Shown: in pieces, positions 10,176-39,027 of the stretch | Position numbering within the stretch: position 1 is the first letter of the stretch | How the letters are laid out: each line of letters starts with the position of its first letter | IMG/VR virus record: IMGVR_UViG_3300042549_005585 | Location: 1 to 64,000 of that record | Source: a virus | Direction: 5' to 3' (one strand) | DNA length: 64,000 nucleotides | Program-made: the position numbers and the translations under genes | Notes under the pieces: generated by a model | The model's database searches: none | What the model was told of the DNA's origin: nothing | Seen by the model: only the letters and a program-made list of their open reading frames with translations

Positions 10176-10176
10176 A

Positions 10177-12018
10177 TTAGCTTATATTGTTATTGTTTTT
10201 TAACATTTGTTCCAAACGCTCAATGCGTTGTTGTTGTTCCTGAATCACTTTAACCAAAACCGGTGCAAACTTAGTATAAGATATACTTAGTCCATCACGT
10301 GATATCTCGGAATAAATATCGTGTACCTCCTCAGCTATGAAACCAATTTCTTTAGTTCCTGTATTGTTCAATGTGTACGACACAGGAGCAAGTTTCATAA
10401 ATTCGGCTGTGCTGTATGATAAAGGCGTAATATCTGATTTTGCAGTACGAGTTGATAATTCAGTAATGCTACCTGATACGATTAAATTATTTATAATTGT
10501 AAGTGAACCTGATATCATTCCATCTCCATATGTTGAGACGAAACTGCCACTTATACCACTAAATTCTGCTACGGCAACACCTGTTGTTGGTACTGCAAAA
10601 TAAATTTCACTACCACTAGGAGATAATGCTTTAATACCTGCTGGTATTAATACTTCATCATTGTCACCGTATATTTGGAATACAGGATACTTAGTGTTTA
10701 AGTTGTGATCAAAACTCCAAGTAACAGCTGCTGATGATTGAGATAAGAATGCTTGAGATCCTGTTGGACTAAAACCACCACCATTAGATAACATAGCATA
10801 TCCTGATGTAGGTACTAAGAATTCAACCTTAACAGTACCATTATCAACACCAGTAATAGCGTTAGGAATAATTTGATTATAACTTAAATCATACACTTGT
10901 ACCATTGGAGATTGTGTCCTCAAAGTGTGAGGTATAATCCAAGATGCTGTAGGTGTAGTTTGAGTAAATTGAGTTGTATTGTATCCTAATCCTGCGTTTA
11001 ATGCGTAGGATGAAGTTAATGCTTGAGATGCAGTACCAAATAAAGTACCTGTAAATGCTCCTGTGAAACTAGAAGTTACAGAGTTGAATATTACATCTGC
11101 AGATTGAGAAATGCTTTGAGCAAGGTCAAATGATGCAATACGAGTTGTATTGTCAAATGTCACATATACACCTTTGCTTAACGAGCCACTTAATGTTAAA
11201 GATTGTGTTTTAAGATCAATAGTACCACTAGTCATTAAACCACTAGATGATAAAGCACCTGTAACAGCTAATGTTGTAACAACACCTGTTAAATTAGCAC
11301 CATCACCTTTAAATGAACCACTAAATGATCCAGTCAATAAAGCAGTTCCAATATGAGAACCACTAAATGATCCTGTCATGTTGGCTGTAGCACTAGTAAC
11401 AGCACCTGCAAAGGCGCCGCTTACTGAGCCAGTAGCGTTAACAGCTCCTGTGAATGACCCTGTTAATGAACCAGTAGCAAATGATATACCTGTAAATGAA
11501 CCTGTACTAGTACCTGTAAATGATCCTGTTAATGAACCAGATAAACGAGCGTTAGCACTAACTACTTGACCAGCGAATGAACCTGTAAACGAACCAGTAG
11601 CTAAAACACTACCAGTAAATGAACCTGTTACACCTCCTGAAAACGAACCAGTGAATGCTGATGCTGATACACTACCTACAATTTGTAATGCGTTTATACC
11701 ATCATCTACACTCTTACCCATCATTATATTATTAGTTGTAGAACTAATAGCAAATGCAGTAGCTGTTGCTGTTGTAAACAAAGCAGCAAACCCACCACTA
11801 GGTGAGTTAACATGTAGTGATGCTGAAGGTTTTACTTGGTTAATACCAAGATAACCAGACGATGTATCGTAGATGGTTACGATAGCTTTAGATCCTGTAC
11901 CGTAGCCATAAAACGTCACACTTCCTGTAGCGTCTGTAAGTAATTCTATACTGTTTACTAAGCTTCCGCTAAATTGTATAGATGACTTACCTGGGGTTAT
12001 TAAAATATTGTTGGGCAT
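10177..12018 (-). CDS. tail fibre protein with C-terminal S74-type intramolecular chaperone
   Basis: TGSF repeats, two HxLxT..P..QvYD modules, C-terminal S...K.DI..L...L.PVSY...IGFIAEEV...Y.K..PVLV...coiled coil. Confidence 0.85.
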   Translation of the reverse strand: MPNNILITPGKSSIQFSGSLVNSIELLTDATGSVTFYGYGTGSKAIVTIYDTSSGYLGINQVKPSASLHVNSPSGGFAALFTTATATAFAISSTTNNIMMGKSVDDGINALQIVGSVSASAFTGSFSGGVTGSFTGSVLATGSFTGSFAGQVVSANARLSGSLTGSFTGTSTGSFTGISFATGSLTGSFTGAVNATGSVSGAFAGAVTSATANMTGSFSGSHIGTALLTGSFSGSFKGDGANLTGVVTTLAVTGALSSSGLMTSGTIDLKTQSLTLSGSLSKGVYVTFDNTTRIASFDLAQSISQSADVIFNSVTSSFTGAFTGTLFGTASQALTSSYALNAGLGYNTTQFTQTTPTASWIIPHTLRTQSPMVQVYDLSYNQIIPNAITGVDNGTVKVEFLVPTSGYAMLSNGGGFSPTGSQAFLSQSSAAVTWSFDHNLNTKYPVFQIYGDNDEVLIPAGIKALSPSGSEIYFAVPTTGVAVAEFSGISGSFVSTYGDGMISGSLTIINNLIVSGSITELSTRTAKSDITPLSYSTAEFMKLAPVSYTLNNTGTKEIGFIAEEVHDIYSEISRDGLSISYTKFAPVLVKVIQEQQQRIERLEQMLKNNNNIS

Positions 12019-12053: not shown

Positions 12054-15000
12054 TTAATGTTTATCAATATGTCTCTTAATTGCCTTTAGTTCCTTTCTCA
12101 TTTCCTCGATGGTTTCCTGCTGGCGTTGTACAATATCAATTAAAATTGGCGTCAACTTAGTGTAAGACATGGATTTACCATCCTCCGCAACTATTTCAGG
12201 GAATAATTCCTGAACATGTTCCGCGATGAAACCTATATCTTTACGTTTATTTTCTTTCCACTTGTATGAAACTGGTTGTAAAGCCATAAACTTAGCGAGT
12301 GGAGTCACAAAGTCTTTAATGTTTTGTTTTAACTCAATGGTTGATGTTTCAGTCAATGTACCTACTGTTAATGCATTTGTACTTGGATTATATGATATTC
12401 CAGCATCAGCGTAAACAGGACCTAATCCAGATAAAGTATCAGTGAATGTTATGTAACGAGTAGCATTTGTACCATCAGTTTGAACAACTGTATTTTGAGC
12501 ACTTGTAACAGAACCACTAAAACCATTTACTGTTGCCACAGCGTAACCAGAAGTTGCAGTTGCAAAAGTAATTTGTGATGAACTTGGACTCATCAAAGTA
12601 ACTCTAGCAGGTATAACTTGACTATAGTCAGAACCATAAACATCAATGTTTATAAGTCTTGAATTCAAATTATGATTAAAACTCCAAGTAACGGCTGCTG
12701 ATGATTGAGATAAAACAGATGTAGATCCAGTAACAAATAATCCTCCAGGATTAAACACTGCAACTCCAGATTGAGGAGAACTAAATGTTATTACTGAGTT
12801 GTTAGCATCAATATTGGTAATGTTTTGAGGTATAATTACATTGTATCCAAAATCATAGACAGTAATGTTTATGTTTCTAGAGTTCAAAGCATGATTAACA
12901 TTCCAAGTTGAAGATGAAGCCGCTTGAGTATGAGTGTAAGCATTTGTTCCACCTCCACCACTACCACCATTCAAAGCATAAGATGCAGTTAAAGCATAAG
13001 ATGAACTTATAGCTTGAGATGCTGTTAAACTACTTGTTGTATTACCTCTTACTATTAAGCTACCAGTTATATTAAATGAACCAGTGACATTATGAGTATC
13101 AGTTAATGCATTACCAAGAGATGATCCAGTAGATGATATTAAGAATTCATTTACATTATTTACAGTGACTGCAAATGTACCAGATACAGTAGTTAAACCA
13201 CTAGAACTAACATATAAGAATGTATTTGATCCACTTACTACTCTAAATGTAGCATCACTACCACTTACACTAGCTGTAACACTACCTGTAGCGATTTGAG
13301 TTGTACTTAAGTTAGCAATAGATGCAACATATGATGCTGTTAAAGCAAAAGATGAACTTAATCCTTGAACAGCATAAGATGAAGTTCCTAATAATGAACC
13401 TGTTATACCACCTGAAACCTTTACACTACCAGTAATTGAAACAGAACCAGTAGAAGTAAATGAACCACTAAATACAATTGTATCTACATTAGCGCTTAAT
13501 ATTGTAGTACCAGCACTACCTGATAAGTTAGTTGATCCTGTTACATTTAAACCACCATTAATAGAAACAATTTGAGTTAATGGGTTAACACTAGATGCTG
13601 TTAATGCTTGAGAAGCAGTACCAAATAAAGTACCTATAAATGATCCTGTAAATGAACCACTTCTGAATGAGCCACTTAGATTAGAATAAGAAGCAGAAAC
13701 TGTAGCAAATGAAGCACTTGCTGTAGTTAAGGTACTAGCTGTTCCTTCTAATCTTGTTATACGAGCACTATCTGAACCACTTGCAATAGCATAAGACGCA
13801 GACATATTAATCAATGTGGCAACTGATGCTGATAATGAACCTGATGCTAATTCTAATATTGTAAAGCGAGTACTGTTAGATCCACTTTGTAAAGCAAATG
13901 ACGCACTAGCGTTTTCTAATACTGTAAAGCGAGTACTATTAGATCCACTATTAATGGCTAATGAAGCACTAGCATTAGTTAGTGTTACAATTGAAGATGA
14001 GAACGAAGCACTTGCTACTACAAATGCACTAGCTGTACTTTCTAAGTTAGTAACACGAGATGAGATAGAAGCGCTTGTTGTGCTAAATGAACTAGTTAGA
14101 ACATAATAAGGTGCTCCAACCGCATTTTGTGCCCAAGATGAAGTACCAAATAACGATCCTGTAAATCCATAGTTTGCAGTTACACTTCCTGTTACTTCAA
14201 ATGATCCTGTTATTTTAACTGAACCAGTAAATTGATGAGTATCGCCTGTATCATCTCCAAATTTAGTACTACCACTACTGAATGATTCAGTAAAGTAAGA
14301 TACTGAAGATGAAATTATAAATGTTTGTGCTGTTAGATTACCTTGAACTGTCCAATCACCTGTTACAGTACCATTACCAGTTATGGTTTGAGTACCAATA
14401 AATGTATTTGATCCTGTAGTGGCATAAGAACCTGTTCTAGAATTTAATGCTCCTGTAGTTGCGTTTAATGCGCCAGTAGTAGCATTTAAAGCACCTGTAG
14501 TAACGTTTAATGCTCCTGTAGTTGCATTTACTGATGAAGTAAATGCTAAGAATGAACTAGTTAAAGTATAACTAGGTGCTACAGATGCTGTTGTGGCGTA
14601 TGATGAAGTAGTAACTAATAAAGATGAAGTTGATACAGCCACTGGGTAACTGTTTGAATCACCTATCCAAGTGAAACCTGATTGAATATTAGGTAATTCT
14701 ACTGGACCTGGATTTAATACTAATCCTTTGCCTCCATTTCCTTCTTTAGTTACTATACCTAACACTTGCACAATTGCTGTTCCCGTAGGTCTAGTTGACG
14801 TCCAACCACCTCCTACAGCAACATAAACTTCTGTTCCTGCTGGGTAGCCAGTTAAATTAATTCCTTCAATTAAACCAAGTACAATGCCTCTTGTAGTATT
14901 ACCTGCGGCAATTGTTTCTGATGCAATGTATACTACTGGCATTTTAGCTGCATTTGCAGCGTCTGCTTTGTACACAATTGGATTTGCTCCTTGTGAACCT

Positions 15001-16121
15001 GAAATATATAATGGATCACTTTTAGTAATGTTTTCACCTGTATAAACTATTTCATACATTGTATTTACGTCACCAAATGCTAAATCGTTAGTGCCATCTG
15101 TTTTTAATACTTGGTTTTCTAAACCATCAGTAGTAGGATATCTTAATCCTGATGCTGTTAGACTATTTCTAACTATAAAAGCATCAGCTGATGAGGCGGT
15201 TGTGGCGTAAGAACTACTAAATGAGTAGATTGCTGATGATGCTGTAACAGCATAAGATGAACTTACAGTATTATCTTGTAATCCATTTATACCACTAAAT
15301 TCAGCTACAGCGACACCTGTTGTAGGTGTAGCGAAAGTAATTTGAGTAGTATTAGTATCAATTGCTGTGATAGTTGCGGGTACAATAACGCTATCATTAG
15401 CATCATATACCTGTACTACAGGATATTTTGTATTAAGTGAGTGAGTAAAACTCCATGTTACAGCAGCAATTGATTGAGTCAAACGAGCTGATGAGCCACT
15501 AATGAATAAGTTACCTCCGTTAGATAAAACAGCATATCCTGTTTGTGCCGCACCAACATTAACAGTTAATAAACTATTGCTTGATCCTGAAATATACTCT
15601 GTAAGTATAGAGTTATAATTCGCATCATATATTTGAACAATAGGTGTCTTTGTATTAAGAGGATGTTCAATCAACCATGTGCTTGACGCTGATGCTTGAG
15701 TAAAATTAAATGTTGAACCAGTAATTACTAAACCACCACCTGTACCTATTACAGCGTATCCTGATTGGATTGAGCTGAAAGATAATACAGTAGTATTAGG
15801 ATCAGTACTCTGAATATTTTGAGGTATAATTACATTACGCCCGTAATCATATACGGTAATTTGTGGCGTAAGCGTGTTTAAATTGTGGGTAAACGTCCAA
15901 GTCGATGCTGATGCCGCCTGCGTAAAGGTAGTCGTAGTACCCAAGTTAGGTGCGACTGCTGCATATAAAGCGTATGAGGATGTAAGTGCGTAAGAAGAGC
16001 TGCCTTGAAGAGATCCTGTAAAATTTCCACTAAATGTTGACGCTGAAATGTATGTGTTTACATTAAGCGAATTCAGACTGGCATCCGAGCCAGACACGAT
16101 GACTTTCTTCCAATTTGGCAT
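12054..16121 (-). CDS. long tail fibre protein with C-terminal S74-type chaperone
   Basis: Ser/Thr-rich; five H-x-L-N modules; C-terminal ST.ELKQNI..LQPVSYKW..IGFIAE..YTKLTPILI. Confidence 0.85.
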   Translation of the reverse strand: MPNWKKVIVSGSDASLNSLNVNTYISASTFSGNFTGSLQGSSSYALTSSYALYAAVAPNLGTTTTFTQAASASTWTFTHNLNTLTPQITVYDYGRNVIIPQNIQSTDPNTTVLSFSSIQSGYAVIGTGGGLVITGSTFNFTQASASSTWLIEHPLNTKTPIVQIYDANYNSILTEYISGSSNSLLTVNVGAAQTGYAVLSNGGNLFISGSSARLTQSIAAVTWSFTHSLNTKYPVVQVYDANDSVIVPATITAIDTNTTQITFATPTTGVAVAEFSGINGLQDNTVSSSYAVTASSAIYSFSSSYATTASSADAFIVRNSLTASGLRYPTTDGLENQVLKTDGTNDLAFGDVNTMYEIVYTGENITKSDPLYISGSQGANPIVYKADAANAAKMPVVYIASETIAAGNTTRGIVLGLIEGINLTGYPAGTEVYVAVGGGWTSTRPTGTAIVQVLGIVTKEGNGGKGLVLNPGPVELPNIQSGFTWIGDSNSYPVAVSTSSLLVTTSSYATTASVAPSYTLTSSFLAFTSSVNATTGALNVTTGALNATTGALNATTGALNSRTGSYATTGSNTFIGTQTITGNGTVTGDWTVQGNLTAQTFIISSSVSYFTESFSSGSTKFGDDTGDTHQFTGSVKITGSFEVTGSVTANYGFTGSLFGTSSWAQNAVGAPYYVLTSSFSTTSASISSRVTNLESTASAFVVASASFSSSIVTLTNASASLAINSGSNSTRFTVLENASASFALQSGSNSTRFTILELASGSLSASVATLINMSASYAIASGSDSARITRLEGTASTLTTASASFATVSASYSNLSGSFRSGSFTGSFIGTLFGTASQALTASSVNPLTQIVSINGGLNVTGSTNLSGSAGTTILSANVDTIVFSGSFTSTGSVSITGSVKVSGGITGSLLGTSSYAVQGLSSSFALTASYVASIANLSTTQIATGSVTASVSGSDATFRVVSGSNTFLYVSSSGLTTVSGTFAVTVNNVNEFLISSTGSSLGNALTDTHNVTGSFNITGSLIVRGNTTSSLTASQAISSSYALTASYALNGGSGGGGTNAYTHTQAASSSTWNVNHALNSRNINITVYDFGYNVIIPQNITNIDANNSVITFSSPQSGVAVFNPGGLFVTGSTSVLSQSSAAVTWSFNHNLNSRLINIDVYGSDYSQVIPARVTLMSPSSSQITFATATSGYAVATVNGFSGSVTSAQNTVVQTDGTNATRYITFTDTLSGLGPVYADAGISYNPSTNALTVGTLTETSTIELKQNIKDFVTPLAKFMALQPVSYKWKENKRKDIGFIAEHVQELFPEIVAEDGKSMSYTKLTPILIDIVQRQQETIEEMRKELKAIKRHIDKH
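14445..14528. repeat. 4 x 21-bp tandem coding repeat (N[AV]TTGAL heptads)
   Basis: Repeat unit ttaatgc(t/g)cc(t/a)gtagt(t/a)gc(g/a)t; protein VNATTGALNVTTGALNATTGALNATTGALN. Confidence 0.85.
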
Positions 16122-16126
16122 GTTCT

Positions 16127-16191
16127 CTAATTACGGTTGGTTACTTAACGACTTGTTAAGCCCACTTCTCCTTGCGGAGACGCATAATCAG
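16127..16191 (-). promoter_or_regulatory. candidate structured 5'-UTR RNA (three-way junction)
   Basis: Closing stem CUGAUUAUG/CGUAAUUAG, UCUCC-GCAA-GGAGA, CUUAAC-AAGUC-GUUAAG; ends 5 nt before the ATG at 16121. Confidence 0.55.
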
Positions 16192-16236
16192 ATTCTATCA
16201 CTAGAAACTAATTAAAATGGCTAGTTATAAATATGA

Positions 16237-16476
16237 TTAGGGCGTACGTTCAGAAATCTCGTTATACATTGTCTGTAATTTATTCACGAGGTTGTACACG
16301 GATTCAATGGTGTCGCCCTTGAATGTTGATTGGCGTACCATCATTAACAATAACTTAATTTCATCTGACGTGAATGGAGTAGTAGTAGAAGGAGCCTCTG
16401 TAGGTACAGAAGCTCCTCTATTAATAACGTTCTTTAAATTGATCATAACAGTTTTAAAAATATTAATTAAGCCCAA
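16237..16476 (-). CDS. small hypothetical protein (true start may be the downstream MINLK...)
   Basis: Fills the gap between two fibre genes; helical C-terminal half. Confidence 0.65.
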   Translation of the reverse strand: MGLINIFKTVMINLKNVINRGASVPTEAPSTTTPFTSDEIKLLLMMVRQSTFKGDTIESVYNLVNKLQTMYNEISERTP

Positions 16477-17627
16477 ATGTATATATCTGATGTTGATGTA
16501 TTAACCCACATATTACCAATACCATTTGTTGTACTACCCCATGTTGGTGGAGTTGCGTCTGATGGATCAGCAGATGTAAATTTAGTTGTGTTCATATATT
16601 CATCTGCAACAACTGATGAAGCAGAAGCATGAACATCATAAGCAACAGCAAAACGACCATATGCTCCAGCAGTAGCTGATTCTACAAAGAATGCAGATCC
16701 TGAAATACCACCACCTCCAGTTGAAGAGGCAATAATAATACCACCATCAGTCAATGAAGTAGAACCAGAAGCAAACACCGCGAATCTATCAGCAATTAAT
16801 AAGTTTTGAGTATTATTAAAGCTAGCTGTACCTGCAACTGTTAAGTCACCTGTAACAGTTAAATTACTATTAACAGTAACTGGAATACCTGAACCTATTG
16901 AAACAGCACTGCCGTTATCTGTAATATTTGAATTTACTAATTGTCCATTACTACTATCCCATTTAGTTACAATGTTGTTTGTTAATGAACTTGCATTCTT
17001 TAATTCTACAGTTTGAGCTGTTGAACCATCAAATGTGAAAGTAGTAATACCAGTACCTTGAGTTAATGATGCTTTTGTAGTATCTGCAATACCAGCTCTT
17101 TCTGAACGAGAAGCACTAGTTGCAAATGAAGCACTTAGTGAATATACAGCGGAAGAAGCAGTTAAAGCATATGATGCTGAAGTAGCATTAGTAGCAACAC
17201 CAGTTAATGATCCACTAAATGAACCAGTAACACCAGCAAATGTAACTTGAGCGTCAGTTTTAATACTTTGAGCTAAGTCAATGCTTACTGTATTGTTTGC
17301 AACACTAACATACAAACCTTCTAAAGTTGAACCAGAAATAACTAAGGCTTCATTTCTAAGATTAATTACGTCATTGCTATCACCACCACCAATAGCATTA
17401 GATGCTGAAATGGCTAAAGATGAAGCTATACCTGTTAATCCTGTACCATCACCAGTAAATGAACCAGTAAACGAACCAGTTAATTTAGTAGATGCTTGAG
17501 CACTTGTTATGATTTGGTTAGTACTAACTAGTAACGAACCCGTTACGCTTACGTTAGCATCTACCTGTAGTGATTGAAGTTGGGCGGCCGAGCCTGAGAC
17601 TACGACCTTTTTCCATGTTGCTGCCAT
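16467..17627 (-). CDS. tail-fibre-like structural protein
   Basis: N-terminal WKKVVVSGS shared with 12054..16121; TGSF repeats. Confidence 0.7.
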   Translation of the reverse strand: MAATWKKVVVSGSAAQLQSLQVDANVSVTGSLLVSTNQIITSAQASTKLTGSFTGSFTGDGTGLTGIASSLAISASNAIGGGDSNDVINLRNEALVISGSTLEGLYVSVANNTVSIDLAQSIKTDAQVTFAGVTGSFSGSLTGVATNATSASYALTASSAVYSLSASFATSASRSERAGIADTTKASLTQGTGITTFTFDGSTAQTVELKNASSLTNNIVTKWDSSNGQLVNSNITDNGSAVSIGSGIPVTVNSNLTVTGDLTVAGTASFNNTQNLLIADRFAVFASGSTSLTDGGIIIASSTGGGGISGSAFFVESATAGAYGRFAVAYDVHASASSVVADEYMNTTKFTSADPSDATPPTWGSTTNGIGNMWVNTSTSDIYIWA

Positions 17628-25739: not shown

Positions 25740-25870
25740 AATAAAATTTTTGTCGGGGATTGTCTATTTAATTTGAGACAATATAAGGGTATGTAATTAA
25801 AACGATAGGATATTAGAGATCCTATATGGGTATCAATAAATATATGTAGATATGTCTAAGCGATAAAGTC

Positions 25871-38550: not shown

Positions 38551-38900
38551 AATATTCTTAATTCAGTTAATATTTCATTTAATGGTTTAGTAATTAATTT
38601 ACTAAATTGATATCTAGCATATTCAGAATATATGTTAGTTTGTCCAGATGCTGGTGAATTTGATTCTTTTCTTGCAAAAACTATTAATTTTCCATTAATA
38701 AATCCTTCAATATAAAATGATTTAGATCCATTTTGTCTATGTCCTATATAAACAGTTGATGGAAGAAATTGTGTTATGTTTGATAATTTAGCAATATTAC
38801 TAAATGTTGTTTTGGTTAATTGTTCCAAACCATTATCCTCAACAGAATATGATACAATATCCTCATCACGTCCTAACTTATATTTGCCAACTATAATCAT
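38547..38900 (-). CDS. hypothetical protein
   Basis: 117-aa ORF, first gene after a host-type promoter. Confidence 0.65.
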   Translation of the reverse strand: MIIVGKYKLGRDEDIVSYSVEDNGLEQLTKTTFSNIAKLSNITQFLPSTVYIGHRQNGSKSFYIEGFINGKLIVFARKESNSPASGQTNIYSEYARYQFSKLITKPLNEILTELRIL

Positions 38901-38904
38901 ATTA

Positions 38905-38936
38905 TAAAATTAACTATAATGTTGAGGCTAGCCAAA
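38905..38936 (-). promoter_or_regulatory. Bacteroidota-type sigma70 promoter
   Basis: TTTGGC-N18-TAATTTTA, 4 nt before ATG 38900. Confidence 0.7.
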
Positions 38937-38942
38937 CTAAGA

Positions 38943-38965
38943 TGGCCCACCTTTTGGGTGGGCCA
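38943..38965 (-). terminator. GC-rich hairpin, probable terminator of the cargo array
   Basis: TGGCCCACC-CAAAA-GGTGGGCCA followed by TCTTAGTTT. Confidence 0.65.
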
Positions 38966-39027
38966 CTACTCCGAATTATTTTATTGATGCGAACAGGTAA
39001 TGAATCTGTTCTGTATGAGTATAAATA

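Follow-up and report, generated by a model that had tools for sequence, protein, structure and literature searches.

The tail-fibre gene of a phage known from an environmental record is preceded by a three-way-junction RNA that belongs to a conserved family, found before the same fibre gene in about 100 aquatic phages. This RNA, about 60 nt long and lying in the leader of the fibre mRNA, may act in cis to control initiation of fibre translation, a reading of the sequence evidence that we regard as about evenly poised. The window, the 64,000-nt stretch of DNA analysed here, comes from a 79.8-kb IMG/VR phage record that is by estimate about half complete; its genes all lie on the minus strand, and the DNA runs containing the stretch originate from lake water. 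The large terminase of this phage shares 62% identity with its counterpart in Flavobacterium phage vB_FspM_immuto, a myovirus of 160 kb, and the N-terminus of its fibre is common to 343 IMG/VR stretches.

Fold of the fibre leader in the window

A preliminary description, made from the letters of the window, had placed a three-way junction in the fibre leader, and the helices P1, P2 and P3 and the junction strands that it named are all present on the minus strand, where the junction folds at 16127-16191 (Table 1). The MFE and centroid folds agree on this junction (-28.6 kcal/mol, z = -3.26), and 0 of 200 shuffles folded as well. P1 is formed by pairing of CUGAUUAUG (16191-16183) with CGUAAUUAG (16135-16127), two G-U pairs included, and an additional pair, G16181-C16136, is possible when C16182 is bulged out. 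The junction strands read AGUGGG and UAACCAAC, and the UGG at 16164-16162 pairs with the CCA at 16138-16140 in a short helix, P3a. Compared with the family described below, the window copy is deviant, with GCG-U replacing NGG at the top of P1 and U16180 as an extra base in P2. The two small hairpins that had been described ahead of the junction correspond to real structure at 16194-16226, which folds as one composite hairpin and is shared only by the near-identical locus L001; in the other relatives P1 begins about 5-8 nt after a promoter-like motif, and there is no comparable 5′ hairpin insert. An intrinsic terminator was excluded as an identity for the element, since P1 is rich in A-U pairs and AGAACAUG comes after it.

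Table 1. Features of the fibre leader and its surroundings, in window coordinates
Feature	Position	Strand	Basis or remark
Tail-fibre gene, 1355 aa, begins MPNWKKVIVSGS	12054..16121	-	PHROG matches to tail fibre and baseplate families
Hairpin within fibre codons 10-15, CUGGC-UCGGAU-GCCAG	16078..16093	-	Fold of the window
5-nt spacer AGAAC and fibre ATG	16119..16126	-	ATG at 16121
U16143 (G-U pair), AA bulge 16141-16142, CCA 16138-16140 (P3a), A16137 (J3/1) and P1 3′ strand 16127-16136	16127..16143	-	AACCAACC invariant in the family
P3 hairpin CUUAAC-AAGUC-GUUAAG, 16160-16155 with 16149-16144	16144..16160	-	Folds; P3 pairs covary
J2/3 AAG, U16164-G16163-G16162 of helix P3a, G16161 of the closing G-U pair	16161..16166	-	AAGUGG invariant in the family
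P2 hairpin UCUCC-GCAA-GGAGA, GCAA loop	16167..16180	-	Family pairs CG/UA/UG/GC covary
P1 5′ strand, C16182 bulged	16181..16191	-	Window letters and folds; P1 columns covary in the family
5′ hairpin insert, lineage-specific, 33 nt	16194..16226	-	Folds; common only to the window and L001
Promoter-like late motif ATATTTAT of the fibre leader	16227..16234	-	Recurrence and position upstream of the RNA in relatives
Small upstream ORF, family 69-79 aa, two-helix hairpin	16237..16476	-	Conserved upstream of the RNA; AF2 pLDDT 84

The RNA is a conserved family tied to one fibre gene

Searching with the N-terminal 200 residues of the fibre, we collected 80 IMG/VR loci, and we built a covariance model, R1, from 46 distinct instances in a structure-blind MAFFT alignment. 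R1 found a single copy in the window, at 16125-16190 on the minus strand (48.5 bits, E 2e-12, full model length), and the same single copy in the whole record. It matched 68 of the 80 loci retrieved via the fibre N-terminus, together with 52 further loci that came from a DNA pattern scan. The cultured Flavobacterium phage vB_FspM_immuto was also matched (56.5 bits), upstream of gp052 ('putative tail fiber-like protein'); this copy occupies NC_055915 137891-137949, and in it the top G-C pair of P1, elsewhere invariant, is A-U.

Many of the 80 retrieved loci have the element just before the ATGCCAAAYTGGAAAAAA start, and nearly all copies end 6-21 nt ahead of an MP[NS]WKK start codon, the distance from the end of P1 to the ATG having medians of 9 (class 1), 11 and 17 nt across three subgroups. 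The downstream gene is the MP[NS]WKK fibre in >90% of cases, at lengths from 67 to >1600 aa. Two DNA pattern scans that were independent of the protein returned many chance matches, and their full-motif instances all precede MP[NS]W (nearly all MP[NS]WKK) or a homing-endonuclease insertion. The window element was found in the same context, with P1 ending 5 nt before the fibre ATG (16121) and a small helical-hairpin ORF upstream. When bacterial and archaeal genomes were scanned with the pattern, at least 120 stretches were returned, and 0 of the 100 tested with R1 was a real instance. RNA-library contigs span 15964-16200 and 16003-16228 and join the structure to the coding region; none of them bridges 16228-16307, and their ends differ from one another.

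The remark that the element could be assigned to no known family was borne out. With Rfam 15, 0 families matched in the window at gathering thresholds, and permissive thresholds applied to three variants gave just noise at E 1-10. A blastn search of the region against cultured phages returned no match. A 2023 survey of structured RNAs in IMG/VR presents about 10,000 unnamed candidates, 12 motifs before gp32 among what it describes, and no tail or fibre motif is named in its main text (Fremin et al. 2023, PMC10690425). As presented there, those candidates resemble the fibre RNA in coming from the same data source and in being cis RNAs upstream of phage genes (PMC10690425).

Covariation supports the helices and a constrained junction

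Conservation and covariation in homologous leaders had been named in the preliminary description as a test of its own account; both proved strong in the family and favour that account. In the structure-blind alignment of 46 instances, 93.5% of the cells pair, double changes are seen in 16 of 22 pairs, and 16 columns, in or beside the junction, are invariant. The covariation score was 0.338, against 0.04-0.085 with the partners slid, and 0 of 500 shuffles reached the observed value. RNAalifold independently gave P1, P2, P3 and the UGG/CCA pairing. The last of these had begun as a guess from the window, and the family upholds it: class 2 reads AAGUAGG...UAUCUAACC, in which UGG/CCA becomes UAG/CUA, and among 93 distinct sequences the pair 42-92 is G-C in 77, A-U in 16 and unpaired in 0. 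The 16 A-U sequences probably form one clade and may reflect a single evolutionary event.

The invariant strands of the family are AAGUGG and AACCAACC. UGG/CCA, a conserved G-U pair and a two-base bulge (AA; AU in class 2) extend P3 to the junction, while P1, which has a one-base bulge, stacks directly on P2, without a linker. That leaves AAG and a single A as linkers, both of them conserved. The tips of the arms vary, P2 down to CC-GAAA-GG and P3 to three pairs, with loops of GNRA, UUCG and other types. Because these arms shrink and their loops vary, the junction is the constrained part of the RNA, and because G-U pairs are conserved, the structure lies on the sense strand. Two longer-range pairings were tried and excluded, namely that of AACCAACC with the UUGG of codons 3-4, where the Asn wobble base is free (50 AAT, 20 AAC), and that of the UUGGC at the P1/P2 boundary with the GCCAA at the start, where the bulge column varies.

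Promoter-like motif and leader length

The ATATTTAT motif upstream of the RNA occurs 24 times in the window against 14 expected, always on the minus strand. Its recurrence and position suggest a promoter function, and it is probably the late promoter element of the phage. It resembles the Bacteroidota -7 box (TAnnTTTG), with A or T replacing G. The motif stands no more than 45 nt ahead of the RNA in 46 of the 53 relatives of class 1 and in all 16 of class 2, at a median of 5.5-8 nt from the model start; among these, the window and L001 are outliers with a gap of 37 nt. The fibre leader, 105 nt from motif to ATG, had been singled out as unusually long and is so, the distance being just 4-31 nt in 19 of the 23 cases in the window.

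Other long gaps between motif and ATG were seen on the minus strand of the window. The leader at 38898-39020 measures 120 nt from a ATATTTAT motif to the ATG at 38900 (MFE -31.2, z = -3.7) and contains a 10-bp GC-rich hairpin, GGCCCACC-CAAAA-GGUGGGCC. Gaps of 136 nt and 96 nt occur at 10176-10311 (MFE -22.3) and 25740-25835 (MFE -9.6), respectively, and the remaining leaders of 4-31 nt are unstructured.

Clues from relatives to a possible role in translation initiation

Clues to function came from relatives that differ in how translation starts. ORFs with a Shine-Dalgarno (SD) sequence make up 63% in one subgroup versus 6-8% in the others, and this SD subgroup is part of the same phage clade (terminase 58% identical). 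Its P1 3′ strand reads CCAUAAGGAG, so that four SD bases are paired. In 18 of 19 SD-type loci, the stop codon of the upstream ORF lies within 4 nt of the model start; a ribosome terminating at this stop would melt P1, which suggests translational coupling in the SD subgroup. The P2 apex of the same subgroup (UUGGCA) complements UGCCAA at the start, with a median duplex of -7.4 kcal/mol, and the invariant P3 loop of class 2, GGCAUAA, complements AUGCC, with a median of -8.9 kcal/mol, compared with about -2 kcal/mol for apex-to-start duplexes outside these two groups. All 23 SD-group genes use CCA as the Pro codon, versus 51 of 64 others (p = 0.017, uncorrected for relatedness). Loop-to-start complementarity was rejected as a universal feature, since 41 of 93 sequences do not have it. 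The window is one of these, and the subgroup to which it belongs lacks both an SD and this complementarity.

The beginning of the coding region also carries structure. Fibre codons 7-19 of the family are enriched in rare GC-ending codons and fold at -7.3 kcal/mol versus -3.8 kcal/mol for synonymous shuffles, an excess that a control region does not have, and position-specific codon resampling gave -5.1 kcal/mol, with p = 4e-11 over sequences that are related to one another. By these synonymous-codon tests, a hairpin in codons 9-16 is under selection. Because it is flanked by P1 and this hairpin, the start codon lies in an open, A-rich stretch of about 30 nt.

We propose that the folded junction would hold the P1 3′ strand against the ribosome-binding region, and that fibre synthesis would be limited or timed until an agent opens or locks the fold. 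A putative phage factor that recognises the invariant junction could do so or, in the SD-using relatives, ribosomes terminating on the upstream small ORF. Control of translation is the best reading because the overlap with the SD, the spacing and the complementary apices fit it best; that translation is affected, in which direction, and that a partner exists are our interpretation of the observed fold, conservation, position, SD overlap and complementarity. As a counterpoint, strict adjacency to the ATG is not universal, given a 105-nt insert in six loci and an endonuclease gene in one. The preliminary description had called the element a cis-regulatory RNA controlling fibre synthesis, and this part of it stands as the best reading of the position and of the SD overlap in relatives; of the element types on its list, the operator and the riboswitch are both candidates, and the ribozyme found no support.

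The RNA may be a protein-bound translational operator, as its position and conservation suggest. A tie to one structural-gene family is typical of protein-bound leaders, such as those of r-proteins and phage T4, rather than of riboswitches, and a macromolecular partner is favoured over a metabolite because the RNA is restricted to one gene family. The T4 translational operators, reportedly treated by Uzan and Miller in 2010, include the gene 32 pseudoknot, the gene 43 hairpin and the RegA sites. Like them, the fibre RNA is phage-encoded and structured, lies at the ribosome-binding region of one gene and, as we infer, acts in cis on initiation; unlike them it is a three-way junction before a virion fibre gene, with no similarity to them in sequence or fold. 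To our knowledge, structured leader RNAs controlling phage structural genes are barely known outside T4.

The small upstream ORF and the fibre paralogue

The small upstream ORF had been suggested for a binding test with the RNA. It held up as a conserved neighbour, its family preceding the RNA in 88 of 92 distinct loci, an approximate count since the HMM was iterated within this small set, but its structural model is unlike an RNA binder. The family core is E-h-x-x-L...G...K-L, and the gene is often present as a tandem pair of paralogues, of which the second has a tail rich in Lys and Glu (e.g. L052:2120-2554; L306:5442-5922). The protein had no Pfam or PHROG match, and a BFVD fold search gave uncharacterised matches at E > 0.001. 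As modelled, it is a neutral, Cys-free two-helix hairpin. In com-mom of phage Mu, a small ORF directly precedes a structured leader by which the start of the following gene is masked, an arrangement resembling the small ORF that adjoins the fibre leader; Com, however, is a zinc-finger RNA binder, which the small protein described here does not resemble. The small upstream protein might be a fibre assembly helper.

Before the small ORF lies the gene for a 386-aa virion protein (16467-17627, minus strand), which begins MAATWKKVVVSGS / MAATWKKVVVSGSAAQLQSLQV and is a paralogue of the fibre N-terminal domain. Its leader is 30 nt long and unstructured, and the junction RNA was not found in it. Simple autoregulation by the fibre is weakened because this paralogue with the same N-terminal domain has no such RNA. 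The order paralogue, small ORF, RNA and fibre is also present in L072.

Alternative roles of the junction

It is conceivable, though we consider it unlikely, that the RNA is a 5′ stabiliser or nuclease roadblock, in which the compact junction blocks 5′-end-dependent or 5′-to-3′ decay with no trans factor. The junction would stand at the 5′ end or close to it, or would head the fibre cistron of a polycistronic RNA, and so keep the fibre message from decaying. Bacteroidota-type relatives start the RNA about 5-8 nt after the motif, so P1 would hold the first bases of the transcript, and the conserved junction bases could specify a rigid tertiary fold instead of a binding site; furthermore, the motif persists where 105 nt or a whole gene separates the RNA from the ATG. 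However, a stabiliser leaves the SD inside P1, the complementarity of the apex to the start codon and the tight spacing to the ATG unaccounted for, 37 nt precede the model start in the window, and the RNA stands at one of the 24 promoter-motif sites there. Among known 5′ stabilisers and exonuclease-resistant RNAs, the ompA 5′ hairpin and flavivirus xrRNA are likewise compact conserved folds located at the 5′ end of a message or close to it, but no ring pseudoknot is evident in the fibre RNA, and its SD overlap is not accounted for by comparison with them.

Improbable in our view is a small-molecule riboswitch, with the invariant junction as aptamer and a ligand that stabilises P1 and hides the ribosome-binding region. 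The variable arms, the invariant junction and the A-U-rich P1 with an SD in its 3′ strand in some relatives are what such an element could look like. The c-di-GMP-II (RF01786) and glutamine-I (RF01739) riboswitches also have a P1 that closes a conserved junction, and the 3′ strand overlaps the SD in some relatives of the fibre RNA; however, neither these two nor any other Rfam riboswitch model matched the three variants even at E <= 10. Moreover, the fibre RNA is linked to a single family of virion structural genes and to no metabolic gene, and it has no expression platform besides P1.

A broader form of the idea, that the invariant junction is itself the sensor, either as an aptamer that binds a metabolite or signal of the host or as a fold resistant to nucleases and ribosomes, seems to us just as improbable. 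If it were true, large aquatic phages would make synthesis of one receptor-binding fibre depend on the infected cell's state, and the RNA would represent the first class of its kind to serve a virion structural gene specifically, working in hosts with and without SD initiation.

Still more doubtful are roles as a self-cleaving ribozyme or other processing site, or as a put-like RNA modifying RNA polymerase just past the promoter. The conserved junction does lie just downstream of the promoter-like motif, and one RNA-library contig ends at 16120, which is uninformative by itself. Against these roles, none of the small self-cleaving ribozymes in Rfam (hammerhead, twister, pistol, hatchet) matched the window element, nor did any other ribozyme model; the RNA-library contigs continue through the element into the coding region; SD-type relatives mostly have no adjoining promoter-like motif (5 of 24 have one); and the close link to the start codon is unaccounted for. 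A DNA-level site, that is, a recombination or homing target at the 5′ end of the fibre gene, is very improbable: L266 and L139 do have homing-endonuclease genes inserted at exactly this point, and the fibre genes are mosaic, but the covariation pattern largely refutes it, since the helices are kept by compensatory changes and the conserved G-U pairs would turn into A-C mismatches on the opposite strand.

Significance and insertions at the locus

The RNA family is conserved far better than the surrounding proteins and occurs in a clade of aquatic phages of about 160 kb whose hosts differ in their mode of translation start. It could reveal how mRNA structure steers Bacteroidota-type ribosomes, which are not reliant on Shine-Dalgarno pairing, and how phages set fibre stoichiometry. 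Its function is directly testable, since Flavobacterium phage vB_FspM_immuto and its host, Flavobacterium sp. LMO8, provide a cultured representative.

Some loci carry additional sequence between the RNA and the fibre gene. A 241-aa GIY-YIG/NUMOD1 homing endonuclease is encoded exactly between the RNA and the fibre start at L266:10522-11247 (minus strand), and the fibre ORF after it opens with TTG. An 81-aa HNH protein occupies the same place at L139:1550-1795 (minus strand) and starts with the fibre's own MPN codons. In six loci (L037:2897-3000, L030, L051, L057, L063 and L071), a conserved structured insert of 105-115 nt separates the RNA from the ATG; it forms two covarying hairpins of its own, one of which abuts the start codon.
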